Source: an uncultured Acidimicrobiia bacterium
Lineage (GTDB): Bacteria > Actinomycetota > Acidimicrobiia > IMCC26256 > JAENVU01
DNA: 64,000 bases
Direction: 5' to 3'
NCBI GenBank assembly: GCA_963752335.1
Contig: CAVVXW010000003.1
Span: forward strand, 183,187-247,186
Shown: in pieces, positions 415 through 63,670 of the stretch
Numbering within the stretch: the stretch's first letter is position 1
Layout of the letters: each line of letters starts with the position of its first letter
Program-made: the position numbers and the translations under genes
Notes under the pieces: model-generated
The model's database searches: none
Told to the model about the DNA's origin: nothing
What the model saw: the letters and a program-made list of their open reading frames with translations, nothing else

Positions 415-987
415 TCAGGCCTTGGCCTTCAGCGGCCGGCCGAAGCGCGACGTGCCCGCCTCGACGGGGGTGCGCTCCGCGGCTTCGGACACCGTGGGTC
501 GCTTCTGCCAGAGCACGAACATCGCGATGTTGAGTCCGAAGAAGATCAGGTAGATGACCACGACCAGGGGGTCGCGCAGGCCGTGCTGGAGGTCGATCGA
601 GAACGGCCAGTTCCAGGACTTCATGAACGGGATCGGGGTCGTGGACTTGATGATGTACCGGTTCGTCGCGAGACCCCAGTACTTGTCGGACGCACCGATG
701 AACTCGCTCGGGATGATCGCGTAGGTGAGGAGGAACAGCGCGAACACGTACAGCGAGCCGGCCATGGCCTCGGCCCAGGTGGTCGGACGGTCGGGCTTGG
801 GGGTGCGCATGCGCCAGATCGCCAGTCCGATCATGACGAGCGCGATGAGGGTGAACCAGATCAGCCGACCGTTCGGCCGGAAGAAGTGCCAGTCGGGCAG
901 CAGGTTGGGCATGGTGCCGCGAGTCTCCTCCTCGGTCCGAGTCGACATCCCCCTCTTGAGGTCGTCCTCGGCCCTTCCTCCGGGCAT
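415..987 (-). CDS. hypothetical integral membrane protein (about 4 hydrophobic helices)
   Basis: ORF 415..987 with diverse amino-acid composition and hydrophobic segments (LIWFTLIALVMIGLAIW, LYVFALFLLTYAIIP, LVVVIYLIFFGLNIAMFVLW). It is tightly coupled to the downstream 4Fe-4S gene. The start could instead be an internal Met (codon 14 or 26). Confidence 0.55.
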   Translation of the reverse strand: MPGGRAEDDLKRGMSTRTEEETRGTMPNLLPDWHFFRPNGRLIWFTLIALVMIGLAIWRMRTPKPDRPTTWAEAMAGSLYVFALFLLTYAIIPSEFIGASDKYWGLATNRYIIKSTTPIPFMKSWNWPFSIDLQHGLRDPLVVVIYLIFFGLNIAMFVLWQKRPTVSEAAERTPVEAGTSRFGRPLKAKA

Positions 988-1117
988 TTCTCTACCACGC
1001 TAGATCGCGCAGCGACACATTGTGCGATCCGCGCGACCGCCGTGTCCGATCGCGCCGATCGCGACCCGCGACCGGGGTGGTGTGCCGGGTCACGCGTGGA
1101 CGTGGAACGATGCCGGG

Positions 1118-2428
1118 GTGAACGAGCGCGGGCCCGAGCGGGTCGACGTCCTGGTGGTCGGCGCCGGCCCCGCGGGAGCGGCCGCGGCGTACTGGCTCGC
1201 AGAGCGCGGCCACTCGGTCGTGGCCGTCGAGAAGAAGCGCTTCCCCCGGGAGAAGACCTGCGGCGACGGCCTCACCCCGCGTGCCGTGCGCCAGCTCGAC
1301 GACATGGGGCTCGCGGACCAGCTGACCGAGTTCCACCGGTACGACGGCCTGCGCTCGATCGCACACGGGATCACGCTCGAGCTCGCGTGGCCCGAGCACC
1401 CGGATTTCCCTTCCCACGGGTACGTCGTGCGCCGACGGGACCTGGACCGGATGGTCGCGGAGCGGGCGGCGAAGGCCGGTGCCACGATCCGGCAGGGGAC
1501 CGAGGCGCTCGCGCCGATCGTCGAGGCCGGCCTCGTGACGGGCGCGGTGCTGCGTCGGTCCGAGACCGGCACGACCGAGGCGGTGCGGGCGCGCTACGTG
1601 GTGGTGGCCGACGGCGCGAACTCCCGCTTCGGGCGGGCGCTGGGCACCGCGCGGGACCGCTCGTACCCGATGGGCATGGCGATTCGCGGCTACTACACCA
1701 GTCCGTTCCACGACGAGACCTGGATCGAGTCCCATCTCGACCTGCGGGACCGGGACGGGAACCACATGCCCGGCTACGGATGGATCTTCCCGGTCGGCGA
1801 CGGCACGGTGAACGTGGGCGCGGGCCTGCTGGACACCTTCACCGGCTTCACCGCGGTGAACACCACCCGACTGCTCGACGCCTTCGTCGCCACCGCGCCC
1901 GCCCGGTGGGGCCTCTCCCCCGAGTCGGCGTGCGGTGCGCCGACCGGCGGGCGCCTCCCGACCGGCGGCTCGGTGCTCCCCAAGGTCGGCCCGACGTGGA
2001 TCGTCGCGGGGGACGCGGCCGGTTCGATCAACCCCTTCAACGGGGAGGGCATCGCCTACGCCTACGAAACCGGGCGAATGGTGGCGGAAACGGTCAGTGA
2101 GGCGCTCACCACGGGCGACGGGCTGGCGCTCGCCCGCTACCCGGCGCGGCTCGAGGAGACCTACGGGCTCTACTTCAAGGTGGCGCGGACCTTCGTGAAG
2201 CTGATCGGCAATCCCGGCGTCATGCGGGAGCTGACCCGGGTGGGGATGCATTCGCGCCCACTGATGGAGTGGGTGCTGCGGATCATGGCCAATCTCCTGC
2301 GTCCGGACGAGATCGGGCCGGCGGAAGCGGCGTACGCGGCCGTCGAGCGCATCGTCGCCGTCCTCCCCGAGCCGACCGGTCGCGTTTCGGGCTCGAGCGG
2401 ACGACGGATCGATCCGATAGCTGGGTGA
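1118..2428 (+). CDS. geranylgeranyl reductase family FAD-dependent oxidoreductase (MenJ-like)
   Basis: ORF 1022..2428. Motifs: VDVLVVGAGPAGAAAAYWLAERG dinucleotide-binding motif, EKTCGDGLTPRA, AGDAAGSINPFNGEGI. The start is placed at in-frame GTG 1118, which leaves room for divergent promoters; 1022 remains possible. Confidence 0.8.
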   Translation: MNERGPERVDVLVVGAGPAGAAAAYWLAERGHSVVAVEKKRFPREKTCGDGLTPRAVRQLDDMGLADQLTEFHRYDGLRSIAHGITLELAWPEHPDFPSHGYVVRRRDLDRMVAERAAKAGATIRQGTEALAPIVEAGLVTGAVLRRSETGTTEAVRARYVVVADGANSRFGRALGTARDRSYPMGMAIRGYYTSPFHDETWIESHLDLRDRDGNHMPGYGWIFPVGDGTVNVGAGLLDTFTGFTAVNTTRLLDAFVATAPARWGLSPESACGAPTGGRLPTGGSVLPKVGPTWIVAGDAAGSINPFNGEGIAYAYETGRMVAETVSEALTTGDGLALARYPARLEETYGLYFKVARTFVKLIGNPGVMRELTRVGMHSRPLMEWVLRIMANLLRPDEIGPAEAAYAAVERIVAVLPEPTGRVSGSSGRRIDPIAG

Positions 2429-3585
2429 TGGCAGCCATGGACGTGGCCGAGGCGCTGCCCGACGTCGGCCGGCTCCTCATGCTCAACGAGAACCTCGGTG
2501 GGCACGCCACGATGCACCTCAACATCTACCGGGCGCTCGCGGAGCACCCGGAGGTGGATTTCGTCGCGCTCGACGTCCCGCCGCGGTCGCTGGCGCGCCG
2601 GATCGCGGGCCTGCGCCTCCCCGGCCTGTCCCGCCTCGACATGGACCTCGCGTCGGTCCGGGCCCAGCTCGCCATCTCCACGACGGGGCACCGGTTGCTG
2701 CAGGCGGCGATCGCCGACGGCCCGGTCGGCGCCATCCACGCCTACTCGCAGCACGTCGCGCTCCGAGCGGTGGACGAGCTCCGCGCCTACCCGTCGGTGG
2801 TGTCGACGGACGGGTCCGCCGCGCAGAACGCGGTGCAGCTCCCTTTCCGACGGCCGGGCCGGTTCACACCGATGACCGCGCGGGTCGGCGAGCGGTTCGA
2901 GGCCAAGGTGTTCGACGCCGCGACCATCGTGGTCGCGCAGTCCGAGTGGTGTGCGCGCGCGATCCGCGAGCGCTATGCCCTCGACGACGACCGGCTCCGG
3001 GTGATCCCGTTCGGGATCTTCCCGCCCGACCCCGTCGAGGACGGTCCGGAGGATCCCGATGCGCTTCCCGAGGTCACCTTCACCGGGAACTCGATGGACC
3101 GCAAGGGCGGGTGGGCATTGCTCCGGGCCTTCCGGTCGCGTCTGCGCGGCACGTGTGTCCTCAACCTGGTCACCCCCGAGCCGATCCCGCCCGAGCCCGG
3201 CGTCCGGGTGTTCTCCGACGTACGTCCCGGCGATCGTCGACTCGTGACGATGCTCGCGCGCTCGGCGGTGTTCGCCTTCCCGAGCGAGATCGACAAGTCG
3301 CCGTACTCGGTGCTCGAGGCGATGTTCGCGGGCCTGCCCGTGGTGTCCACCCCCGTCGGGGGGATCCCCGAGATGGTCCTGGACGGCGAGACGGGCATCC
3401 TGGTCCCGCCGGGTGACGACACCGCGATCGGTGCTGCGATCGAGCGATTGCTGAGCGACGACGGCCTGCGTCGTCGGATGGGACGCGCCGGGCACGAGCG
3501 CGCACATCGCCATTTCGACGCGCGCACCACGACCGCGACGCTGATCGGCACGATCGCGGAGGCGCGGGAACGGCACGCGTCCTGA
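2428..3585 (+). CDS. glycosyltransferase family 4 (GT-B fold)
   Basis: ORF 2269..3585 trimmed to ATG 2428, which overlaps the upstream TGA by 1 nt. The C-terminal signature is FAFPSEIDKSPYSVLEAMFAGLPVVSTPVGGIPEMV..GETGILV. Confidence 0.8.
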   Translation: MAAMDVAEALPDVGRLLMLNENLGGHATMHLNIYRALAEHPEVDFVALDVPPRSLARRIAGLRLPGLSRLDMDLASVRAQLAISTTGHRLLQAAIADGPVGAIHAYSQHVALRAVDELRAYPSVVSTDGSAAQNAVQLPFRRPGRFTPMTARVGERFEAKVFDAATIVVAQSEWCARAIRERYALDDDRLRVIPFGIFPPDPVEDGPEDPDALPEVTFTGNSMDRKGGWALLRAFRSRLRGTCVLNLVTPEPIPPEPGVRVFSDVRPGDRRLVTMLARSAVFAFPSEIDKSPYSVLEAMFAGLPVVSTPVGGIPEMVLDGETGILVPPGDDTAIGAAIERLLSDDGLRRRMGRAGHERAHRHFDARTTTATLIGTIAEARERHAS

Positions 3586-3609
3586 CGGCGCGGGCTGGGG
3601 ACGGGCGCC

Positions 3610-4398
3610 TCACCACGCTCGTGCGGGCCGGGCCAGCTGGCGCGCGAGTCGGAACCGGTCGTGCGCCGGTCCGATGCAGAATCGCGGGATCGCGTGCGGA
3701 TCGGTCGTGGGCGTCACGCGGCCGAAGGTGAACGTGCATGCCGCGCGGTATCCCTCGGATCGGGCCGCGGCCTCCGAGGCCGGGTCGTGGTGGCCGAAGG
3801 GATACGCGAGCAGGTCCGTGATCCCTCCCGCCGCTCCCAACCATTCCCGCGGTCCTCGGAGCTCGACGATCCGTGTCTCCGAATCCGTGTCCGGCAGCGA
3901 CACGTGGTGCGCGGTGTGCGAGGCCAGCGTGACGAGTCCGGACGCCGAGAGCTCGTGCAGCTCCGCCGCGGTCATCGTGCGGGCCGCTCCCGGCCAGAAC
4001 GGAGGATCGATGCCGAGCACGGCGGTGACCACGAACACCGTGGCCGGAACGCCGTGTTCCTCGAGGACCGGCGCGGCGTCCCGGCCGACACCGACGAGTG
4101 CGTCGTCGAAGGTCACCGCGACCAGGCCGTCGAGATCCCGCCCCCCGAGGAGTCGGTCGACGATCTCACCGAGGGGCACGAACGTCAGACCCCAGGCGCG
4201 GATCCAGGCGATGTGCTGCTCGAGCAGCCGCGGCGAGACGTAGTAGTCGGTCGTGTTGTCGGCGTCGTCGCCCACGTCGTGGTAACAGAGCACCGCCGCG
4301 CCGTGCCCGCGGACCGGGAGCGAACGGCCTGCGGCCGCGCGCACCGGGCCCGACAACCCGCGCAGCTTGGACGGGATCGCGCGCGTCGGCGACATCAC
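3610..4398 (-). CDS. polysaccharide deacetylase (NodB-homology domain) family protein
   Basis: ORF 3610..4398. Motifs VAVTFDDALVGV, PATVFVV and HTAHHVSL are typical of the NodB/CE4 fold. Confidence 0.75.
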   Translation of the reverse strand: MMSPTRAIPSKLRGLSGPVRAAAGRSLPVRGHGAAVLCYHDVGDDADNTTDYYVSPRLLEQHIAWIRAWGLTFVPLGEIVDRLLGGRDLDGLVAVTFDDALVGVGRDAAPVLEEHGVPATVFVVTAVLGIDPPFWPGAARTMTAAELHELSASGLVTLASHTAHHVSLPDTDSETRIVELRGPREWLGAAGGITDLLAYPFGHHDPASEAAARSEGYRAACTFTFGRVTPTTDPHAIPRFCIGPAHDRFRLARQLARPARAW

Positions 4399-4444
4399 CT
4401 CAGGCTAGGGCCGACCCGGTCGAGCTCGGGCACGAGCTCGGCGC

Positions 4445-5266
4445 TCAGGAGGCGACGACGGCCCGGGTCGAGCGCACGACGGCCCGGGTGAGCTCGGCCT
4501 CGGTCGTGGCCTGGAGCGTGACGTCCTCGGTCGCGTTGCCGTACCCGGCGAGGAGGTCGGACGCGTTGGGGAACACCCACACCGTCTCGACGGTCGTGAT
4601 CCAACCGATGTCCGTCCCCCCAACCGCGTCCCCGGACCGGCGGTGCGTGACCACGCGACCGGCGTCGAGCACCCGCTGGTCCTCCAGGGTGGTGGGCACG
4701 TTGGCCGCCACCGCTCCGAACGAGTTCCGAATCTTCTGGACGGTGCGGCTGATCTGGCGGATCTCGGTCCGGAGCGCGGCCGTCGGCGACCACGCGGTCG
4801 CGCGCGCCAGCCATCCGGCGAAGCTCCGGGCGTCGCTCGCGGCCAGCTCCACAACGTTCGGGTGCGGGGCGTGCTCGTCGACGAGCAGTCCCTCCAGCAG
4901 GAACGCGTTCCGCGACAGGATCTCGTAGGGCCGGTACCGCTGGACCGAGCACGTCGTCTCGGCATCGAGCGCCACGGTGAAGAGGGTGACGTGCGGCGGG
5001 CGCGGCGCGCGCGTCTCCGCGTCGACGACACCGCGGGCGATGAGCGATCGCACGAGCGCGTCGTTGACGATCGTGCGCTCGTGATCCGTCCGGGGCCGGG
5101 AGTCGTCCCATGGCACCCCGGGGAACGCGCCGCGGCCCCGCAGACCCGCGACGGCGTGGAGCTCGTCGACGGAATAGCGCTCGCAGGTCGCGAGCAGCAT
5201 CGCGTCGTCCACCGACGACGCGTCGTCGGTTCGTTCGTGTCCGTGGAGCAGGCGCACCGTGACCAC
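4445..5266 (-). CDS. hypothetical protein
   Basis: Of three overlapping minus-strand ORFs here, only the 4445..5506 frame has protein-like composition (N, I, F, K, Q present); the other two are R/P/G/A-rich shadows. The start is uncertain; it is placed at GTG 5266 because the first 80 codons look non-coding. Confidence 0.4.
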   Translation of the reverse strand: MVTVRLLHGHERTDDASSVDDAMLLATCERYSVDELHAVAGLRGRGAFPGVPWDDSRPRTDHERTIVNDALVRSLIARGVVDAETRAPRPPHVTLFTVALDAETTCSVQRYRPYEILSRNAFLLEGLLVDEHAPHPNVVELAASDARSFAGWLARATAWSPTAALRTEIRQISRTVQKIRNSFGAVAANVPTTLEDQRVLDAGRVVTHRRSGDAVGGTDIGWITTVETVWVFPNASDLLAGYGNATEDVTLQATTEAELTRAVVRSTRAVVAS

Positions 5267-5505
5267 CAATCTCGGATCGTTCGGATGTCGAGCTCCGCCA
5301 CCGCGAGGTGCGCCCGGCCGGACGCTACCGGGTGACCCGACGACTCCGCCATGGGCCTTCCGGCGCTCCTCCGGAATGCTGCCGATCGAGCAGAAGCATC
5401 CCGACCGGGCGCCATGGCACGGTTCGCGGCTTCGCCCTCGGCACGCGACACCCGGCGGCGCGTCCGCGGCACACGGTCGCGCCGCGGACTCCATCGCGAG
5501 CCACA

Positions 5506-5536
5506 TTGCCGTCGGTGGACTGCGGTCAGATAGCCT
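5506..5536 (+). promoter_or_regulatory. candidate promoter of nuo operon 1 (TTGCCG-19 nt-TAGCCT)
   Basis: This is the only TANNNT hexamer with a TTG-type -35 in the 300-nt divergent spacer upstream of nuoA. The spacer is longer than optimal. Confidence 0.2.
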
Positions 5537-5576
5537 CGGCGCGAGGGTTCACCGGAGCGACGGAAGGGGAGTGAAC

Positions 5577-6044
5577 ATGGCGCAGTACCTGCCGATCCTG
5601 GCCATGGTCGTCCTCGTCATCCTGTTCGTGCTGGGGTCGTTCGTCGCGTCGATCGTGCTCGGGGTCAAGCGTCCGACTCGCGCCAAGACGATGCCGTACG
5701 AGTGCGGGATCGTTCCCGAGCGCGAGCCGGCCGAGCGCTTCCCCGTCAAGTTCTATCTGGTGGCGATGACCTTCATCGTCCTCGACGTCGAGATCATCTT
5801 CCTCTATCCGTTCGCGACCGTCTTCCGCAGTCTCGGCGGCTACGGCATCGCGGTCATGGGCGTCTTCCTGCTCGTCCTCATCGTCCCCTTCGCCTACCTC
5901 CTCAGCGTGGGAGCGCTCGACTGGGGTCCGGTACGCCAGGTCGCGAGCAGGGTGATCAGGCCGGTGCTGCGTGCGTCGGGTCGTCCCGATGGTGTCGCCC
6001 CGGTCGGGGTGTCCCAGGCCGACGAAGAGTCCGAGGCGGCGTAG
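5577..6044 (+). CDS. nuoA: NADH-quinone oxidoreductase subunit A (operon 1)
   Basis: Frame of ORF 5259..6044 trimmed to ATG 5577, which is preceded by GGAAGGGGAG. Motifs PYECG and [12 protein letters not shown]; three hydrophobic helices. Confidence 0.9.
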
Positions 6045-6046
6045 CC

Positions 6047-6613
6047 ATGGGTCTCGACGCGGTCCCCTACAACGTCCTCACGGGCCGGCTGGAGGACCTC
6101 GTCCGTTGGGCGCGCCGGAACTCGGTGATGCCGGCGACGTTCGGCCTTGCCTGCTGCGCGCTCGAGATGATGGCGACGGGCGCGGCGCACTACGACCTCG
6201 CCCGCTTCGGGATGGAGACCTTCCGGGCCAGCCCGCGTCAGGCCGACCTCATGATCGTCGCGGGACGCGTGAGCCAGAAGATGGCTCCGGTGCTGCGCCA
6301 GGTGTACGACCAGATGGTCGAGCCCAAATGGGTCATCTCGATGGGCGTCTGCGCGAGCAGCGGCGGCATGTTCAACAACTACGCCATCGTGCAGGGCGTC
6401 GATCAGATCGTTCCGGTGGACGTGTACGTGCCGGGCTGTCCCCCGGGGCCCGAGACCCTGCTCCACGGCATCGTCACGCTGCACGAGCTCATCCGCACGG
6501 GTGAGTTGCTCGCGCGGCGTACGGCGTCGCCGTCGGGAGGCGCCGGGATCGAGGTCGCCCAGCGCGACGGGGTTCCGGTCGAGCTCCCGACCCCCGAGCC
6601 GGCGGGCGCCTGA
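6047..6613 (+). CDS. nuoB: NADH-quinone oxidoreductase subunit B (operon 1)
   Basis: ATG 6047 lies 2 nt after the nuoA stop. Cluster N2 cysteine motifs [18 protein letters not shown] and VPGCPP. Confidence 0.93.
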
Positions 6614-6615
6614 CC

Positions 6616-7188
6616 ATGGCCGAGACGCCCGACGCGCCTCCTGCCGCCGACGCTCGTGAAGAACAGCACAAGCCGCCTCGGCCCTGGGACGAGGTGGCGG
6701 CGGCGCTCTGCGACCGCTTCGAGGGCTCGGTGTTCCGCGACTCGCACGGGCAGCCGGTCGTGTACGTCGAACGGCAGTGCTGGTCCGATGCCGCCCTCGC
6801 GCTGCGCGACGACGAGCAGTTCGCGACCTGTCTCGACCTGACCGCCGTCGACCATCTCCTCGACGCCGACCGGGTCGACGTGCCGGGCGTGCCGCTCGAG
6901 CGCTTCGAGGTGGTGGCCAACTTCCTCGCGCACGCGCGCAACCGGCGGATCCGGCTCATCGCCCAGGTGCCGGCCACCGATCCGCACATCGCGAGCCTCA
7001 CGCCGATCTATCCGGGCGTGGACTTCGCCGAACGCGAGGTGTACGACCTCTTCGGCATCGAGTTCCCGGGCCACCCGGAGCTCACACGCATCCTGATGCC
7101 CGACGACTGGGTCGGCCACCCCCTGCGCAAGGACGACGCGCCAGCACGCGTGCCCGTCACGTTCAAAGGCGACCCGAGCCCACGATGA
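6616..7188 (+). CDS. nuoC: NADH-quinone oxidoreductase subunit C (operon 1)
   Basis: ORF 6616..7188. AEREVYDLFGIEFPGHPELTRILMPDDWVGHPLRKD is the NuoC/30-kDa signature. Confidence 0.92.
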   Translation: MAETPDAPPAADAREEQHKPPRPWDEVAAALCDRFEGSVFRDSHGQPVVYVERQCWSDAALALRDDEQFATCLDLTAVDHLLDADRVDVPGVPLERFEVVANFLAHARNRRIRLIAQVPATDPHIASLTPIYPGVDFAEREVYDLFGIEFPGHPELTRILMPDDWVGHPLRKDDAPARVPVTFKGDPSPR

Positions 7189-8561
7189 GCGACATCGACG
7201 ACGAGCTGGAGACGGTCGACGTCGAGACCGACGAGTACCTCGACGACGACGTCGACGACCACGAGCCCGTCACCGAGGAGATGATCGAGCGCGAGCACGA
7301 GCGGCTCGAGCGCCAGACCGACGAGGGCGCGCAGCAGCTCGTGCAGGAGTCCGAGATCGTCGTCACCGGCGGACCGTGGCCCGAGCTCGAGGGCGAGTCC
7401 CAGACCATGGTCATCAACATGGGCCCGCAGCACCCGTCGACCCACGGAGTGCTGCGGATCATGCTGGAGCTCGACGGCGAGACCGTCGTGCGCGCCAAGC
7501 CGGTCATCGGCTACCTCCACACGGGCATGGAGAAGACCGCCGAGCAGCTCACCTATGTCCAGGGCGCCACCAACGTCACGCGTATGGACTACGCGTCCCC
7601 GATCGCGAACGAGATCGTGTTCTCGACGGCGGTCGAGCGCCTTCTCGACATCGAGGTGCCCGAGCGTGCGGTGTGGGCGAGGATGCTGCTCGCCGAGCTG
7701 AGCCGGATGGCATCGCACCTCCTGTTCCAGGCCACCAACGGCATGGACCTCGGGGCCGTCTCGATGATGCTCTACGGCTGGCGCGAGCGCGAGGAGACGC
7801 TGCGGGTCCTCGAGCTCATCACCGGGCTGCGCATGAACCACAACTTCGTCCGACCGGGTGGCGTCGCGGCCGACCTGCCCGACGGCTGGCAGCTCGCGTG
7901 CCTCGAGCTCTGCGAGCTCGTCGAGCGCGGGATCAACGAATACGACGAGCTGCTCACCGGGAACCCGATCTGGCTCGAGCGGATGGTCGGCGTCGGCGTC
8001 ATCACGACCGAGGAGGCGCTGGCGCTCGGGGCCACGGGACCCATCTTGCGCTCGACCGGATTCGCGTGGGACCTCCGCAAGGTGCAGCCGTACCTCGCGT
8101 ACGACCAGGTCGACTTCGACGTCATCTACACCGAGAACGGCGACTGCTTCGACCGGTACCGGATCCGCCTCTACGAGATCGCGGAGTCCGTCAAGATCGT
8201 GCGTCAATGCGTGGATCGCATGCCCGGTGGCGACTACCGGCTCCAGGACAAGAAGGTCACGCCGCCACCGCGGGCGCGCATCGACGAGTCGATGGAGGCG
8301 CTCATCCACCACTTCAAGCTCTTCACGGAAGGGTTCCGGGTCCCCGCCGGCGAGACCTACGTCGCGGTGGAGTCCCCGCGTGGTGAGGTCGGTTGCTACC
8401 TGGTCAGCGACGGGACGGGGAAACCCGTACGGCTCCACATCCGGGGACCGTCCTTCTACAACCTGGGGTCGATGCACCCGATGATCAAGGACCGCATGAT
8501 CGCCGACGGTGTCGCGATCGTGTCGAGCGTCGATCCGATCATGGGCGAGGTGGACCGATGA
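7185..8561 (+). CDS. nuoD: NADH-quinone oxidoreductase subunit D (operon 1), with an acidic N-terminal extension
   Basis: ATG 7185 overlaps the nuoC stop (ATGA). Motifs INMGPQHPSTHGVLRI and GYLHTGMEK; the protein ends ...DPIMGEVDR. Confidence 0.93.
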   Translation: MSDIDDELETVDVETDEYLDDDVDDHEPVTEEMIEREHERLERQTDEGAQQLVQESEIVVTGGPWPELEGESQTMVINMGPQHPSTHGVLRIMLELDGETVVRAKPVIGYLHTGMEKTAEQLTYVQGATNVTRMDYASPIANEIVFSTAVERLLDIEVPERAVWARMLLAELSRMASHLLFQATNGMDLGAVSMMLYGWREREETLRVLELITGLRMNHNFVRPGGVAADLPDGWQLACLELCELVERGINEYDELLTGNPIWLERMVGVGVITTEEALALGATGPILRSTGFAWDLRKVQPYLAYDQVDFDVIYTENGDCFDRYRIRLYEIAESVKIVRQCVDRMPGGDYRLQDKKVTPPPRARIDESMEALIHHFKLFTEGFRVPAGETYVAVESPRGEVGCYLVSDGTGKPVRLHIRGPSFYNLGSMHPMIKDRMIADGVAIVSSVDPIMGEVDR

Positions 8562-8650
8562 GCGGAACGGAGCCAGGGCCGGGAGTGGGGACGATGAGCG
8601 GAGCGGGGCCCGAACGGCCCGGCCCGCAGGGCCAGGAGTGGGGACGATGA
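8558..8650 (+). other. duplicated nuoD/nuoE junction containing a 30-codon ORF (MSGTEPGPGVGTMSGAGPERPGPQGQEWGR)
   Basis: ATG 8558 overlaps the nuoD TGA (ATGA), and TGA 8648-8650 overlaps the nuoE ATG (ATGA). GGAGTGGGGACGATGAGC occurs at 8582-8599 and again at 8635-8652. GATGAGCGGA(A/G)CGG occurs at 8557 and 8593. Confidence 0.3.
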
Positions 8651-9135
8651 GCTTCGATCCGACCAACGCGGCGAAGGCCGCCGAGATCGTCGCGCGGTAT
8701 CCGGACCCGCATTCGGCCATCCTGCCCCTCGCGCATCTCGCCCAGGATCAGGACGGCTACCTGAGCCTCGAGGCCATGCGCGAGATCGCGCGGTTGTGCG
8801 CCACGACGGCCGCCGACGTGCAGGGAGTCTGCAGCTTCTACACGATGTTCAAGCGCACTCCGTGCGGGAAGTACGTCGTCAGCGTGTGCACCAACGTGAC
8901 GTGCCTCGTCGTCGGTGGACCCGAGATCCTGGAGCACCTCGAGGACCGCTACGCGAACGACGACGACGTCTTCGTCGAAGAGGTCGAGTGCCTGGCGGCG
9001 TGCGGGAACGCGCCCGCCATGCAGGTGAACTACGAGTTCCACGAGCATCTGAACCCCGAGTTGGCCGAGGCCGTCGTGGACGACTACAAGTCGGGACGAC
9101 TCGTCGCACGCGGCGTCTCGGGAGGTGTGTCGTGA
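8647..9135 (+). CDS. nuoE: NADH-quinone oxidoreductase subunit E (operon 1)
   Basis: Frame of ORF 8509..9135 trimmed to ATG 8647, which has a GGAGTGGGGAC SD. 2Fe-2S cysteines lie in CGKYVVSVCTNVTC and VECLAACGNAP. Confidence 0.9.
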   Translation: MSFDPTNAAKAAEIVARYPDPHSAILPLAHLAQDQDGYLSLEAMREIARLCATTAADVQGVCSFYTMFKRTPCGKYVVSVCTNVTCLVVGGPEILEHLEDRYANDDDVFVEEVECLAACGNAPAMQVNYEFHEHLNPELAEAVVDDYKSGRLVARGVSGGVS

Positions 9136-26154: not shown

Positions 26155-26220
26155 CGCCGCGCGTGGCCCACTCGAGGAGCACGACGTCTCCCGTTCCGCG
26201 GCGGAGCGGAGGCACACCGG

Positions 26221-26257
26221 GGAGCGAACGGCCGCCAGGTGGGTATCCCGTCGAGCA
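26221..26257 (+). promoter_or_regulatory. copy of the GGTAYCC-hairpin leader element in the nuoI2-nuoJ2 spacer
   Basis: ggagcgaacggccgccaggtgggtatcccgtcgagca matches the tuf repeat unit at 62206-62242 at 31 of 37 positions (counted by hand). It lies in a 118-nt gap in an otherwise tightly packed operon. Confidence 0.5.
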
Positions 26258-26272
26258 GACAGCGACGCAATC

Positions 26273-26788
26273 GTGATCGTCCAGAACATCTTCTTCTGGG
26301 TCTTCGCGGTCGCGATGATCGGTGCCGCGATCGGCGTGGTGCGCTCGCGCAACGTCGTGCACGCCGCCCTCTACCTGGTCGTCGTCATGGCCGGCGCCGC
26401 CGCGCAGTACATCCTGCTCGCGGCCGAGTTCGTCGCCTGGGTCCAGGTGATCATCTACATCGGCGCGGTGATCATCCTGTTCCTGTTCGGCATCATGCTC
26501 ACGCGCGCGCCGATGCGCGGTGAGACCGATCTCGACAACGACCAGAAGTGGCAGGGAGCGGTCGTCGGCGTGTTCCTCGCCGGCGTGCTCGGCACGCTGT
26601 TGATCCAAGCCTTCGGCGACAAGAAGATCGCGATCGGTGGCACCCAGGGTCAGAAGCTGCTGCACGTCGGGAAGGCCTCGACGGTCGCCGACACGATCTT
26701 CCGAGGCTACGTCGTGCCGTTCGAGCTCGTGTCGATCCTGCTGCTGGCCGCACTGGTCGGCGCGGTCGTGATCGCACGGAGGGACTGA
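26273..26788 (+). CDS. nuoJ: NADH-quinone oxidoreductase subunit J (operon 2)
   Basis: Frame of ORF 25910..26788 trimmed to GTG 26273. Begins [34 protein letters not shown] and ends [22 protein letters not shown]. Confidence 0.88.
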
Positions 26789-45257: not shown

Positions 45258-45335
45258 CTCGAAGACGACGACTCGGCGGAGGTCGGGGCTCACGGATCCC
45301 CGGGGATACCAGACACTTCCGCGATCGTGCCGCCC

Positions 45336-45442
45336 CGAGCACGAAGCACCGGCGGAGTGCGAGCAGCCTCGGAGCGTCCCGACCGGGCGCTCGCAGGTAC
45401 CCTGCGAGCGAGCGAAGAGGCCGAGAAGACGGAGCAACGGAG
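45336..45442 (+). promoter_or_regulatory. structured leader element (family copy) upstream of rpmG
   Basis: GAGCACGAAGCACCGGCGGAGTGCGAGCAGCCTCGGAGCGTCCCG, then a 10-bp hairpin CGCTCGCAGG-TAC-CCTGCGAGCG (45388-45410), then AGCGAAGAGGC..GACGGAGCAA and the ATG. Long identical blocks are shared with the rplK leader. Confidence 0.55.
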
Positions 45443-45724: not shown

Positions 45725-46288
45725 ATGGTGGACGAGACCGAGCTGATCCGCGCTGCCCAGGCCGGCGACCGCACCGCGTTCGACGAGCTGGTCCGGGCGA
45801 CCTACACCGACCTCTTCACCCTGGCCGTCCGATTGACCGGGAACGAGGAGGACGCACGCGACGTGGTCCAGGACGCTTACCTGCGGGCGTGGAAGGGCAT
45901 CGGCGGATTCCGTGGAGACGCTGCGCTCTCGACCTGGCTCTACCGCATCACCGCGAACTGTGCGTCCACGCACCTCTCGCGGCGGCGTCGCACGCGCACC
46001 GAGCCCTTCGCCCCCGGCTTCGACCCCGCCGAGCTCCGTTCGGACCTCCAACCCGAGTCGATGACCGAGTCGACGCTCGACCTCGAGCGCATCGGGCGCG
46101 CGGTCGACGAGCTCCCGCCGAAGCTGCGGGCGGTGGTCGTGCTCCGGGACGTGTACGGCCTCGCTCACGAAGCGATCGCCGAGGAGCTCGGGATCTCCGT
46201 GTCCGCGGCCAAGGTCCGATTGCACCGCGCTCGGAAGCGTCTGCGCGACGAAGTGTTCGAGGAGAAGGGAGCGGCCCGTGCGATATGA
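45725..46288 (+). CDS. ECF (sigma-70 family, group 4) RNA polymerase sigma factor
   Basis: ORF 45725..46288. Region 2 DVVQDAYLRAWKGIGGFRGDAALSTWLYRITAN; region 4 LPPKLRAVVVLRDVYGLAHEAIAEELGISVSAAKVRLHRARKRL. Confidence 0.88.
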   Translation: MVDETELIRAAQAGDRTAFDELVRATYTDLFTLAVRLTGNEEDARDVVQDAYLRAWKGIGGFRGDAALSTWLYRITANCASTHLSRRRRTRTEPFAPGFDPAELRSDLQPESMTESTLDLERIGRAVDELPPKLRAVVVLRDVYGLAHEAIAEELGISVSAAKVRLHRARKRLRDEVFEEKGAARAI

Positions 46289-46640
46289 GGACGTCGCGGA
46301 CGTGTTGCCGGGCCTGGTCGACGGCACCGCCGAGGTCGACGAGCGCACCCGTGCATTCATCGAATCCGATCTGCGCTGCCAGGCCGAGCTCGCCCGGTAC
46401 CGCCGGCTGCTCCGAGGGTTGGGGACGCTGCGCACCACCTACCTCGAGCCCGCGCCCGGTGGGCTGGCCCAGACGCTGAACGCGCTCGCCGCGGAAGGCG
46501 AGCGCCGCATGGCGCGTTCGATCCTGACCGGCAGGCGCATGGTGGTGGCCGGTGCTGCGCTCGGTGGCGCGGCGGTCGCCGGCGCCGCGACCGCGGCGGT
46601 GTTCGCGGCCCGCTCGCGCCGCCGCCTCCTCGCCGGCTGA
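46278..46640 (+). CDS. putative anti-sigma factor (single C-terminal TM helix)
   Basis: ORF 46278..46640 overlaps the sigma gene by 11 nt. It is a short protein with a helical N-terminal domain and the hydrophobic segment MVVAGAALGGAAVAGAATAAVFAA. The call rests on context, and no zinc motif was seen. Confidence 0.55.
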   Translation: MRYEDVADVLPGLVDGTAEVDERTRAFIESDLRCQAELARYRRLLRGLGTLRTTYLEPAPGGLAQTLNALAAEGERRMARSILTGRRMVVAGAALGGAAVAGAATAAVFAARSRRRLLAG

Positions 46641-48034: not shown

Positions 48035-48153
48035 CAAGCGTCACGGGCGCCCGGGTGTTCCCGGGGGTCCGGGGACCGGGTCGTCCGCACGATGGTCGGA
48101 CCGAGCCCGAACCAAGTCAGATGTCCCGAGACGCGGCCGCGTTCGTCGGGACT

Positions 48154-48260
48154 CGAGCCCGAAGCGTGAGCGGAGGGCGAGCAGCCTCGTAGCGTCCCGG
48201 AGGGCGGCCGCAGGTACCCTGCGGCCGAAGCGAAGAGGCAGAAGAGACGGAGCAATCAAG
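48154..48260 (+). promoter_or_regulatory. structured leader element (family copy) upstream of rplK
   Basis: CGAGCCCGAAGCGTGAGCGGAGGGCGAGCAGCCTCGTAGCGTCCCG, then a 9-bp hairpin GGCCGCAGG-TAC-CCTGCGGCC (48206-48226), then AAGCGAAGAGGC..GACGGAGCAA and the ATG. Confidence 0.55.
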
Positions 48261-48819: not shown

Positions 48820-48866
48820 GAAGGCAGCGCCGGTATCCCGGCGCCGAGCAAGGAGCGACCGAGAAG
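48820..48866 (+). promoter_or_regulatory. partial leader element (hairpin plus GAGCAA/SD module) upstream of rplA
   Basis: A 7-bp hairpin GCGCCGG-TATC-CCGGCGC (48827-48844) is followed by CGAGCAAGGAGCGACCGAGAAG and the ATG. It has the same apex (GGTATCC) and the same downstream GAGCAA as the tuf unit. Confidence 0.45.
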
Positions 48867-49745: not shown

Positions 49746-50399
49746 GTGGCCAGACCCGAGAAGGTGGCGGTCGTCACCGAGATCCGCGAGCGGCTCGCCG
49801 ACGCCGACGCGACCGTGTTGACCGAGTACCGGGGTCTCAAGGTGAGCGAGCTCGCGACGCTGCGCGGCTCTCTGCGTCCGGCCGGCACGGACTTCAAGAT
49901 CTACAAGAACAGTCTCGCCCGGCGCGCGGTGGAGGAGGCCGGGCTCGGCGATCTCATCCCGTTGCTCCAGGGCCCGACCGCGATCGCGTTCGTCAGGGGC
50001 GACGCCGTCATCGCGGCCAAGGCGCTGCGGGACTTCGGCCGGACCAACCAGGCGCTGGTGGTCAAGGGAGGCCTGCTCGGCACCAAGGTTCTCGTCGCGT
50101 CCGATGTCGCCGCGCTCGCCGACATCGCCCCGCGCGACGAGCTCCTCGCCCGGCTGGCCGGGGGATTCCAGGCACCGATGGTCAAGGCGGCGGGCCTGTT
50201 CCAGGCGTTCACCCGGAACATGGCCTACGGCCTCAAGGCCCTGATCGACGAGCGGATCAGCGCCGGGGAACCAGCACCGGGACCCGAGGCCGAGCCGGCC
50301 GCGGAATCCGAGGCCGAGACCGACACCGAGTCCGACTCCGAGACGGCGGCCGAGACCGAGACCGACACCGAATCCGACGCTCCCGCGTCGGACGACTGA
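49746..50399 (+). CDS. rplJ: 50S ribosomal protein L10, with an acidic low-complexity C-terminal tail
   Basis: ORF 49746..50399 (GTG start). Motif LTEYRGLKVSELATLRGSLR. The tail reads EPAPGPEAEPAAESEAETDTESDSETAAETETDTESDAPASDD. Confidence 0.92.
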   Translation: MARPEKVAVVTEIRERLADADATVLTEYRGLKVSELATLRGSLRPAGTDFKIYKNSLARRAVEEAGLGDLIPLLQGPTAIAFVRGDAVIAAKALRDFGRTNQALVVKGGLLGTKVLVASDVAALADIAPRDELLARLAGGFQAPMVKAAGLFQAFTRNMAYGLKALIDERISAGEPAPGPEAEPAAESEAETDTESDSETAAETETDTESDAPASDD

Positions 50400-50865: not shown

Positions 50866-50901
50866 TTGACCTGCCGGGGGAGGATTTGTATCCTCCCCCG
50901 G
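50866..50901 (+). promoter_or_regulatory. candidate rpoB promoter (TTGACC-17 nt-TATCCT) overlapping a perfect 12-bp-stem palindrome
   Basis: TTGACC at 50866-50871 and TATCCT at 50889-50894. The inverted repeat CCGGGGGAGGAT-ttgt-ATCCTCCCCCGG spans 50874-50901. This is the rplL-rpoB spacer, where attenuators and promoters are known in other bacteria. Confidence 0.35.
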
Positions 50902-59977: not shown

Positions 59978-62077
<2,100 letters not shown>

Positions 62078-62124
62078 TCCGGCGCCCGGTCCCCCAGAGA
62101 TCAGTTGGTCGGCCACTTCGCGTG

Positions 62125-62469
62125 CCGAGCAACGAAGGCAACAACAAGACAGCACGATGCGGTCGGTGTGACCCGAGCCCGAAGCGAAGGCGGAGGGCGA
62201 GCCGCGGAGTGAGTGGCCGCGAGGCGGGTATCCCGCCGAGCAACGAAGGCAACAACAAGACAGCACGATGCGGTCGGTGTGACCCGAGCCCGAAGCGAAG
62301 GCGGAGGGCGAGCCGCGGAGTGAGTGGCCGCGAGGCGGGTATCCCGCCGAGCAACGAAGGCAACAACAAGACAGCACGATGCGGTCGGTGTGACCCGAGC
62401 CCGAAGCGAAGGCGGAGGGCGAGCCGCGGAGTGAGTGGCCGCGAGGCGGGTATCCCGCCGAGCAACGAA
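62125..62469. repeat. perfect tandem repeat, 3 x 111 bp plus 12 nt of a fourth copy (tuf leader)
   Basis: The units 62125-62235, 62236-62346 and 62347-62457 read identically when compared base by base. Unit sequence: ccgagcaacgaaggcaacaacaagacagcacgatgcggtcggtgtgacccgagcccgaagcgaaggcggagggcgagccgcggagtgagtggccgcgaggcgggtatcccg. Confidence 0.9.
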
Positions 62470-62482
62470 CGGAGCAAGAGGG

Positions 62483-63670
62483 ATGGCGAAGGAGAAGTTC
62501 GAGCGGACGAAGCCGCACCTGAACATCGGGACCATGGGTCACATCGACCATGGCAAGACCACGCTGACCGCGGCGATCACCCGGGTGCTGGCCGAGAAGA
62601 ACCCGAACGTCACGGCCACCGCGTTCGACATGATCGACAAGGCGCCGGAAGAGAAGGCGCGAGGGATCACGATCAACATCGCGCACGTCGAGTACGAGAC
62701 GGACAACCGTCACTACGCGCACGTCGACATGCCCGGCCACGCCGACTACATCAAGAACATGATCACCGGTGCGGCCCAGGTCGACGGTGCGATCCTCGTG
62801 GTGGCCGCCACCGACGGCCCGATGCCCCAGACTCGTGAGCACGTCCTGCTCGCCCGCCAGGTCGGTGTGCCGTCCATCGTGGTGGCCCTGAACAAGTGCG
62901 ACGCGGTCGAGGACGAGGAGCTGCTCGAGCTGGTCGAGATGGAGGTCCGGGAGCTGCTCAACGAGTACGAGTTCCCGGGCGACGACACCCCGGTGGTGCG
63001 GGTCTCCGCGCTCAAGGCGCTCGAGGGCGACGCAGCCGCCGCCGAGGGAATTGTCGAGTTGATGAACCAGGTCGACTCGTTCATCCCCGAGCCCGTCCGT
63101 GAGCTCGACAAGCCCTTCATGATGGCGATCGAGGACGTGTTCACCATCACGGGTCGCGGGACCGTCGTCACCGGGAAGGTCGAGCAGGGTGTGCTCCACA
63201 CCGGCGACGAGATCGAGATCGTCGGCCTGCGCGACACGCAGAAGACCACCTGCACGGGCGTCGAGATGTTCCGCAAGATCCTCGACCAGGGGCAGGCGGG
63301 CGACAACATCGGTGCCCTGCTCCGCGGTACGAAGAAGGAGGAGGTCGAGCGCGGCCAGGTGCTCGCCAAGCCCGGTTCGATCACCCCGCACACCGACTTC
63401 GAGGCGCAGGTCTACGTGCTCACGAAGGAGGAGGGTGGTCGGCACACCCCGTTCTTCGCCAACTACCACCCGCAGTTCTACTTCCGCACCACCGACGTGA
63501 CGGGCACGATCAACCTGCCCGAAGGGACCGAGATGGTGATGCCGGGCGACAACACCGAGATGACGGTGCAGCTCCAGAAGCCCATCGCCATGGAAGAGGG
63601 TCTGCGGTTCGCCATTCGTGAAGGTGGTCGCACCGTCGGCGCCGGTCGCGTGACCAAGATCCTCAAGTAG
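62483..63670 (+). CDS. tuf: translation elongation factor Tu
   Basis: Frame of ORF 62435..63670 trimmed to ATG 62483 (GGAGCAAGAGGG SD). Begins [32 protein letters not shown]; also DMPGHADY and NKCD. Confidence 0.96.

Follow-up and report, generated by a model that had tools for sequence, protein, structure and literature searches.

The question raised by this locus is why the spacer between fusA and tuf, the genes for the elongation factors EF-G and EF-Tu, is filled with perfect repeats in an uncultured, soil-type member of the Acidimicrobiia, and whether the number of repeats matters for tuf. The locus lies in a 64-kb stretch of DNA, referred to below as the window; all positions are those of its + strand, and the copy count is that of the assembly. 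An earlier note on this DNA had described three identical 111-bp units in the spacer. We consider it rather likely that the locus has undergone a recent minisatellite-type expansion of an undescribed leader RNA module, of which a single unit is functional and copies 2 and 3 are close to neutral.

The tandem array and its counterparts in related genomes

The fusA gene ends at 62077 and the ATG of tuf is found at 62483, which leaves a spacer of 405 nt. Tandem Repeats Finder (TRF) detected an array at 62124-62469 with a period of 111, 3.1 copies, 100% matches, no indels and a score of 692. Direct comparison of the units, which start at 62124, 62235 and 62346, revealed no mismatch among the three copies. 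Unit 3 is followed by 13 nt of a fourth unit (62457-62469, GCCGAGCAACGAA), after which the sequence diverges into CGGAGCAAGAGGG-ATG. Thus, the array and its three 111-bp units are present as first described; the interval given then, 62125-62457, is the same array rotated by one base, and the part of the fourth unit measures 13 nt, not 12. A perfect periodicity over 346 nt cannot arise by chance, and the array is the sole high-identity repeat in the window, the other repeat families being 60-79% similar and consisting mostly of paralogous genes. The elements of the locus are the following.

59978..62077, + strand: fusA (EF-G), an open reading frame (ORF) of 699 aa, 100% to P0001 and 95% to the EF-G of the nearest relative
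62078..62123, + strand: ancestral 5′ part of the spacer, matching the nearest relative (L001) at 42/46 nt and ending in a hairpin whose 3′ arm enters the left direct repeat
62124..62136, + strand: left 13-nt direct repeat GCCGAGCAACGAA, identical to 62457-62469
62124..62234, + strand: unit 1, 111 nt, without mismatches to units 2 and 3
62235..62345, + strand: unit 2, 111 nt (TRF and direct comparison)
62346..62456, + strand: unit 3, 111 nt (TRF and direct comparison)
62457..62469, + strand: right 13-nt direct repeat, the start of a fourth unit (direct comparison)
62470..62482, + strand: Shine-Dalgarno (SD) region of tuf, CGGAGCAAGAGGG, with the pattern ACGGAGCAA-N4-6-ATG
62483..63670, + strand: tuf (EF-Tu), with Pfam GTP_EFTU, GTP_EFTU_D2 and GTP_EFTU_D3

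Unit 3 together with 62457-62482 forms the copy adjoining tuf, in the same position as the single unit of the relatives. The different, imperfect hairpin that had been noticed ahead of the first unit, CGGCCAC-ttcgc-GTGCCG, was located at 62111-62128. ORFs cross the array on both strands (62122-62838 on the + strand, 62055-62477 and 62101-62535 on the - strand) because 111 is a multiple of 3; none of the three reaches any Pfam curated cut-off, so that a protein-coding reading of the array was rejected, in keeping with the earlier note, which had called the ORFs spurious. No tRNA or tmRNA was found in the spacer.

Searches with EF-G, NusG and RpoC placed the window in an uncultured Acidimicrobiia lineage. 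The nearest genome is the metagenome-assembled genome MFD05684.bin.2.64 (L001/L111) from the Microflora Danica Nanopore project (PMC12313526), a 3.83-Mb contig with 95% identity in EF-G and 91.4% nucleotide identity in fusA. An exact-protein look-up with EF-Tu and EF-G of the window returned no record. A closer NusG match, of 98% over 79% of the query, was found on a 250-kb contig, and no RpoC or EF-G from that contig was among the matches. The spacer of the nearest relative, 183 nt, equals exactly 405 minus 2 x 111: it comprises the same 5′ flank, one unit (106/111 nt) and the same SD region. The relatives compare as follows.

L001/L111 (MFD05684.bin.2.64): EF-G 95%, spacer 183 nt, one unit
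L002, L003 and L108 (three independent assemblies): EF-G 91-92%, spacer 199 nt, one unit, more diverged
L109: EF-G 91%, spacer 63 nt, no unit
L110: EF-G 89%, spacer 60 nt, no unit
P0003, P0006 and P0013 (Joint Genome Institute, JGI): EF-G 92%, 92% and 94% over 97% of the query, spacers 224, 79 and 81 nt (from gene coordinates, which give spacer lengths; unit counts cover the relatives with DNA)

The window thus bears the longest fusA-tuf spacer among the genomes compared, in line with the earlier remark on its unusual length, and the comparison of copy number among related genomes proposed at that time yields three states of the locus, with 0, 1 and 3 copies. Just before the ATG, L109 keeps GCAACGAACGGAGCAAG and L110 keeps GGAGCAA, both without a unit. 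In L110 (ERZ25039539 contig_4156, 800-8800), rpoB and rpoC are split into several called genes, most likely as a result of frameshift errors in the assembly, so this sequence should be used with care. In a neighbour-joining tree of EF-G, the unit-bearing genomes form one group, and a short-spacer sequence is nested inside it, which suggests a loss.

The boundaries of the array indicate how it may have arisen. It is bracketed by the perfect 13-nt direct repeat GCCGAGCAACGAA, while the corresponding repeats in L001 match at 12/13 positions (GCCGACCAACGAA vs. GCCGAGCAACGAA). The 5′ part of the L001 spacer forms a perfect 10-bp hairpin, GTTGGTCGGC/GCCGACCAAC, completed by the C at the differing site; the G found there in the window breaks this hairpin pair and makes the direct repeat perfect. 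A 13-nt direct repeat is an expected substrate for slippage or unequal recombination. We infer from the sequences that one unit was already present in the common ancestor of the window genome and its nearest relatives, that slippage or unequal recombination between the bracketing repeats would have produced a duplication in the window lineage, and that a further unequal exchange between the 111-nt repeats would have given the third copy. The copies show 0 differences from each other vs. 5/111 from the orthologous single unit of the nearest relative; therefore, the expansion is much younger than the split of the two genomes, or the copies have been homogenized. The recent event that the earlier note had read from the perfect identity is borne out by this comparison. 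The expansion would thus be too recent for the copies to have diverged, and the locus would behave as a minisatellite, or variable-number tandem repeat (VNTR), with 0, 1 or 3 copies among relatives. In Mycobacterium tuberculosis, perfect tandem repeats of 54-58 bp upstream of genes vary at 1e-2 to 1e-3 per chromosome, and changes in their copy number alter expression (PMC12817950). The triplication itself is an ordinary, textbook minisatellite event; what is undescribed is the RNA element that has been repeated.

Constraint, structure and distribution of the repeated unit

The unit diverges from its L001 orthologue by 4.5%, whereas the third codon positions of fusA diverge by 21%; therefore, the unit is under constraint and is not junk spacer. 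It comprises an A/C-rich stretch of about 35 nt, followed by three hairpins, given here for unit 1.

62177..62198, + strand: H1, GCCC-GAA-GC-GAAG-GC-GGA-GGGC, with an internal loop of 3x3 purines; repeated at 62288-62309 and 62399-62420
62203..62221, + strand: H2, CGCGG-AGTGAGTGG-CCGCG, from predicted folds; recurs at +111 and +222
62219..62241, + strand: H3, GC-GA-GGCGGG-TAT-CCCGCC-GA-GC, straddling the unit boundary; recurs at +111 and +222

The GCCC..GGGC stem and the GGCGGG-TAT-CCCGCC hairpin (62223-62237, 62334-62348 and 62445-62459) that had been ascribed to each unit are therefore indeed found in all three, and each unit also holds the SD-like GAGCAACGAAGG. The assignment of the unit to a family of leader elements was also justified, since related modules precede rpmG and rplK.

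48151..48260, + strand: paralogous type B module upstream of rplK, with the exact H1 motif (nhmmer E = 5e-21)
45333..45442, + strand: paralogous type B module upstream of rpmG (L33 by Pfam), H1 with 3 mismatches (nhmmer E = 5e-18)

A search with the H1 motif gave 5 matches in the window vs. 0 expected, exact ones at rplK (48155) and in each unit; in the rpmG H1 (45337), two of the three mismatches form a compensatory pair. Across six modules, 92.7% of the cells in H1 pair, compared with 29-53% when the partners were slid. Two independent leaders have A:U in place of one C:G pair, and in L002 a C:G pair is added to the inner stem. Of the six modules, five have the same GAA/GGA purine loop, the rpmG leader of L111 having AGA on one side. 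The H2 stem is invariant in all type A modules, hence it is a predicted hairpin with no covariation signal. H3 has GGTAYCC at its centre and GA/GA flanks, and we compared nine instances of it, taken in the window and its relatives from the leaders of tuf, rpmG, rplK, rplA and nuoJ. Seven of the ten pairs change on both sides, 80% of the cells pair vs. 34-46% when slid, and the covariation score was reached by none of 500 shuffles. The G.U pairs of H3 would be C.A on the other strand, and the modules are always oriented in the sense direction; therefore, an RNA rather than a DNA structure is favoured. The case for structure lies in covariation and not in energy.

Two further observations concern the interior of the unit. 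The ancestral 5′ hairpin and H2 of unit 1 contain an 8-nt perfect complement, CGGCCACT/AGTGGCCG (62110-62117 with 62212-62219), and H2 of the other units is likewise complementary to this hairpin; this may be due to chance or reflect an alternative pairing. Each unit also contains a mini-ORF, ATG CGG TCG GTG TGA (62157-62171, 62268-62282 and 62379-62393), which lies inside the part of the unit with the highest conservation, CAAGACAGCACGATGCGG, unchanged in L001 and L002. Its valine codon is synonymous in L001 (GTA), and no SD sequence stands ahead of it.

No known RNA family accounts for the unit in the searches performed. Rfam gave 0 matches at gathering thresholds in the window and none at E <= 5 in 44-64 kb. 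When the spacer alone was searched at E <= 10, a fragment of Plant_SRP helix 8 fell on H3 with 9 bits vs. a gathering score of 105 (E = 2.6) and was discarded as chance. ANTAR-type dual hexaloop targets were also rejected, as the loops here have 3, 4 and 7-9 nt.

The modules fall into two types. Type A comprises those of the tuf leaders and of the rpmG leader of the nearest relative (L111, 828-917), while type B, with a longer H3 and AGCGAAGAGGC, comprises those of the rplK and rpmG leaders of the window. In the rplK leader of L111 (3548-3657), H1 is lost and rearranged pieces are all that is left (nhmmer E = 2e-7). The identities between leaders are listed below.

rpmG vs. rplK, window (paralogous, same genome): 81%
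rpmG vs. tuf, L111 (paralogous, same genome): 86%
rpmG, window vs. L111 (orthologous): 66%
rplK, window vs. L111 (orthologous): 65%
tuf, window vs. L111 (orthologous): 97%

Paralogous leaders are thus more alike than the orthologous leaders of rpmG and rplK; therefore, modules have been replaced or converted between loci since the genomes split, that is, within about 9% nucleotide divergence. A probable aid to this exchange was the GAACGGAGCAA ribosome-binding context that the leaders have in common. The pattern ACGGAGCAA-N4-6-ATG is common to the tuf, rpmG and rplK leaders, and it is kept in all relatives, including those without a unit.

To judge by genome-wide scans, the family is low-copy. 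In 185,579 species genomes, the motif CGAAGC-N4-6-GCGGAG-N-GCGRGCMGC retrieved 98 stretches, of which the requirement for a flanking stem left one true member, a single match on the 3.83-Mb contig of the nearest relative. The remaining stretches belong to unrelated taxa, are devoid of the other parts of the module and were judged to be chance. When the 22-mer best conserved in the unit was run against JGI metagenomes, it gave 6 matches, likewise ascribed to chance, none of them between fusA and tuf. Apart from the modules, an H3-like hairpin, GGTGGG-TAT-CCCGTC, was noticed in the nuoI-nuoJ spacer (26155-26274) at 26238-26252, followed by GAGCAGA just before the GTG of nuoJ; its G.U pairs work on the + strand only. 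Therefore, this hairpin type is not limited to translation genes.

Copy number, tuf expression and competing explanations

Nothing observed here supports a tuning of tuf expression by copy number. A scan for sigma-70-type promoters at 61500-62700 found none, the scan being based on the consensus, with divergent actinobacterial and alternative-sigma promoters outside its scope. The sole T-containing -10 candidate lacks conservation (the window has TATCCC, L001 GATCCC and L002 TACCCC), nor is there a conserved TANNNT across the units. A + strand scan of the spacer for intrinsic terminators was also negative. The internal SD-like GAAGG lies 18 nt from the nearest ATG, which opens a 4-codon ORF; therefore, it is implausible as a ribosome-binding site. 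Nor is any ORF coupled to the start of tuf: every unit has a TGA in that frame (62432-62434 in unit 3), and the frame-1 ORF 62122-62838 continues beyond the tuf ATG.

In partition-function folding, constructs that carried 0 to 5 units changed by about -49.6 kcal/mol with each added unit; therefore, the unit is predicted to fold independently. The predicted accessibility of the tuf SD is 0.72, equal with 1 to 5 units, and that of the wider start region is 0.58 with no unit and 0.70 with one or more. Most likely, the role of a single unit lies in the RNA, as a structure that insulates or stabilizes between the cistrons or as a protein site. The unit would keep the tuf ribosome-binding site apart from fusA, and it could shield or set the 5′ end of a processed tuf mRNA. 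For translation initiation, copies 2 and 3 are most likely neutral or close to it.

Several points weigh against this interpretation. The count of three comes from the assembly, and copy-number variation is documented between species-level relatives, no second genome of the same species having been found. For single units, the folding z-scores (-0.1 to -1.3) did not reach significance. The suggested RNA-level role is drawn from 6 to 9 sequences, some of them paralogues, and it does not account for the conservation of the GAA/GGA loop in H1. Moreover, a perfect triplet in a population consensus could reflect selection for more copies.

The last point leads to the view that the expansion is adaptive, each unit adding a promoter, an RNase site, a 5′ stabilizer or a ribosome standby site, so that three units raise or otherwise set tuf expression relative to fusA. 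The array does stand directly upstream of a gene that needs expression well above that of fusA, the unit is constrained and structured, and each copy brings about 35 nt of unpaired A/C-rich sequence; the triplet is the consensus state of the assembled population, and in another actinobacterium, M. tuberculosis, upstream repeats alter expression when their number changes (PMC12817950). However, no sigma-70-like promoter or terminator was detected in the spacer, its single T-containing -10 candidate is not conserved, and the internal GAAGG faces the ATG of a mere 4-codon ORF at 18 nt; ribosome-binding-site accessibility is predicted to be identical with 1 to 5 units, and no relative with DNA has more than one. 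Tuning of tuf by copy number, the idea of the earlier note, is not favoured by the folding computation, and we regard the adaptive view as unlikely. Also unlikely is a bolder proposal, according to which the modules would be portable leader cassettes of an undescribed class in this Acidimicrobiia clade: a protein-binding RNA (the H1 loop plus an L1-operator-like H3) copied among the leaders of tuf, rplK and rpmG, translation genes with high expression, via GAACGGAGCAA-anchored recombination, with the tuf dosage of 0, 1 or 3 setting the EF-Tu:EF-G ratio or coupling EF-Tu to the free ribosomal protein pool.

A quite improbable explanation is that the copy number is an artefact and that the genome carries one unit, or some other number, the assembler or polisher having mis-resolved a short tandem repeat or fused variants of different strains. 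The earlier note had pointed out that perfectly identical copies are compatible with this too, all relatives with DNA have 0 or 1 unit, and the count in the window stands on an assembly and not on reads. Yet the window contig of 703,713 bp suggests long reads, which would span 346 nt many times; the array has clean boundaries at the 13-nt direct repeat with intact flanks, and it is the only such repeat in 64 kb. In addition, assembly errors in tandem repeats of this kind tend to collapse copies rather than expand them (PMC12817950). Least credible is the view of the unit as a small intergenic repeat, mobile or selfish, of the kind of a mycobacterial interspersed repetitive unit (MIRU) or of a MITE (miniature inverted-repeat transposable element), inserted before tuf with target duplication and then multiplied in place. 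It would explain why some relatives carry the unit and others lack it, why direct repeats of the CAACGAA type flank it, and why related modules sit in other leaders and were exchanged between loci (81% and 86% identity vs. 65-66% for orthologous ones). But the unit ends lack terminal inverted repeats, the copy number is very low (one H1-motif match in the 3.83-Mb contig of the relative), and every copy in the 64 kb stands in the sense orientation before rpmG, rplK or tuf. Furthermore, the unit has no ORF coupled to the tuf start, with a TGA in the tuf frame of each copy, gives no match in plasmid or phage collections and is more conserved than synonymous sites.

Relation to known repeats and leader RNAs

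As a repeat, the array has the properties of a VNTR or minisatellite: head-to-tail units in the range from about 10 to more than 100 bp with high identity (3.1 x 111 bp, 100%), and a copy number that differs at the same locus among related genomes (3 in the window; 1 in L001/L111, L002, L003 and L108; 0 in L109 and L110). It resembles the promoter-proximal repeats of M. tuberculosis (PMC12817950) in being near-perfect, head-to-tail and directly upstream of a gene in an actinobacterium, and in its relation to slippage or unequal recombination and to short-read mis-assembly. It differs in that the unit is longer (111 nt), lies inside an operon between fusA and tuf, not at a mapped promoter, and has no detected promoter of its own. 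Like MIRU, it consists of tandem units of variable copy number in an operon spacer adjoining a start codon in Actinobacteria. MIRU, however, occur scattered over many loci and hold a short ORF that is translationally coupled, through a -4 overlap, to the gene downstream (PMC12548453), whereas the array has no coupled ORF (about 90 nt separate the end of the 4-codon ORF from the next unit), the module is confined to three loci in 64 kb (rpmG, rplK and tuf), and the unit is a conserved hairpin set with maintained pairing. Unlike a MITE, the unit has no inverted repeats at its ends, the H3 palindrome being internal, and the direct repeats are part of the hairpin/SD context.

The unit may also be compared with ribosomal-protein leaders. 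The L1-interacting RNA, found directly before rplA in Actinobacteria, or else before rplK, has a 6-12-bp stem and an internal bulge with a potential G-A pair followed by an unpaired A (PMC3616713). As in such leaders, a short hairpin of 6-10 bp, with G-A in its internal loops and with unpaired adenosines, stands close before the start of a translation gene; H3, with its 6-bp stem, GA/GA internal loop, 2 bp and AAC, resembles the L1 consensus by description, no family model having been scored. A hairpin of the H3 type, GCGCCGG-TATC-CCGGCGC followed by CGAGCAAGGAG, is also found in the rplK-rplA spacer at 48827-48844, the expected place of an L1 operator, and the relative (L111, 4084-4241) shares the final ~90 nt of this spacer almost unchanged. 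The archaeal L1 operator contains GAGGC...GCCGAGAAAC, similar to GAGGCGGG...CCCGCCGAGCAAC of H3. On the other hand, the units precede tuf, and the H3 type occurs before rpmG, rplK and nuoJ as well, outside any known L1 regulon; H1 and H2 have no counterpart in the L1 leader, and no Rfam match was obtained. We treat the likeness of H3 to an L1 operator as a lead only.

Intercistronic hairpins that stabilize or process mRNA are exemplified by the repetitive extragenic palindromes (REP) and bacterial interspersed mosaic elements (BIME) in malEFG and by the hairpins of the puf operon. The unit is similar to them as a stable sense-strand hairpin set between cistrons whose products are needed in different amounts. 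Those elements, however, are mostly 3′ barriers for the upstream cistron or are present in high copy, while the hairpins of the unit adjoin the ribosome-binding site of the downstream gene, occur in few copies and have specific conserved loops.

Some other features of the window were recorded along the way. The rplL-rpoB spacer (50866-50900) contains a long perfect hairpin, CCGGGGGAGGAT-TTGT-ATCCTCCCCCGG, possibly an attenuator-type structure such as is known at that position in other bacteria. The 3′ end of rplJ (50284-50378) bears imperfect 6-, 18- and 24-nt repeats (CCGAGA/CCGAGG...) that encode an acidic low-complexity tail of L10. A gene for an extracytoplasmic function (ECF) sigma factor with a small downstream ORF lies between rpmG and tRNA-Trp (about 45725-46640 in the window, 1203-2118 in L111) and interrupts the otherwise conserved tRNA-rpmG-secE-nusG-rplKA arrangement. 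Two paralogous sets of nuo (NADH dehydrogenase) genes, at about 15.6-20.5 kb and 26.8-31.6 kb, are spaced about 11.2 kb apart and share 70-77% nucleotide identity (families D3-D8).

Taken together, the triplication is useful mainly as a marker of how fast such a spacer can change and as a caution for assemblies. The more valuable result is the repeated element itself, a constrained module, apparently acting as sense-strand RNA, that stands before tuf, rplK and rpmG and has no counterpart in Rfam. Bacteria differ in how they uncouple EF-Tu from EF-G in the str operon. Should the module bind a protein or direct mRNA processing, the states with 0, 1 and 3 copies before tuf would represent a natural dosage experiment on this uncoupling.

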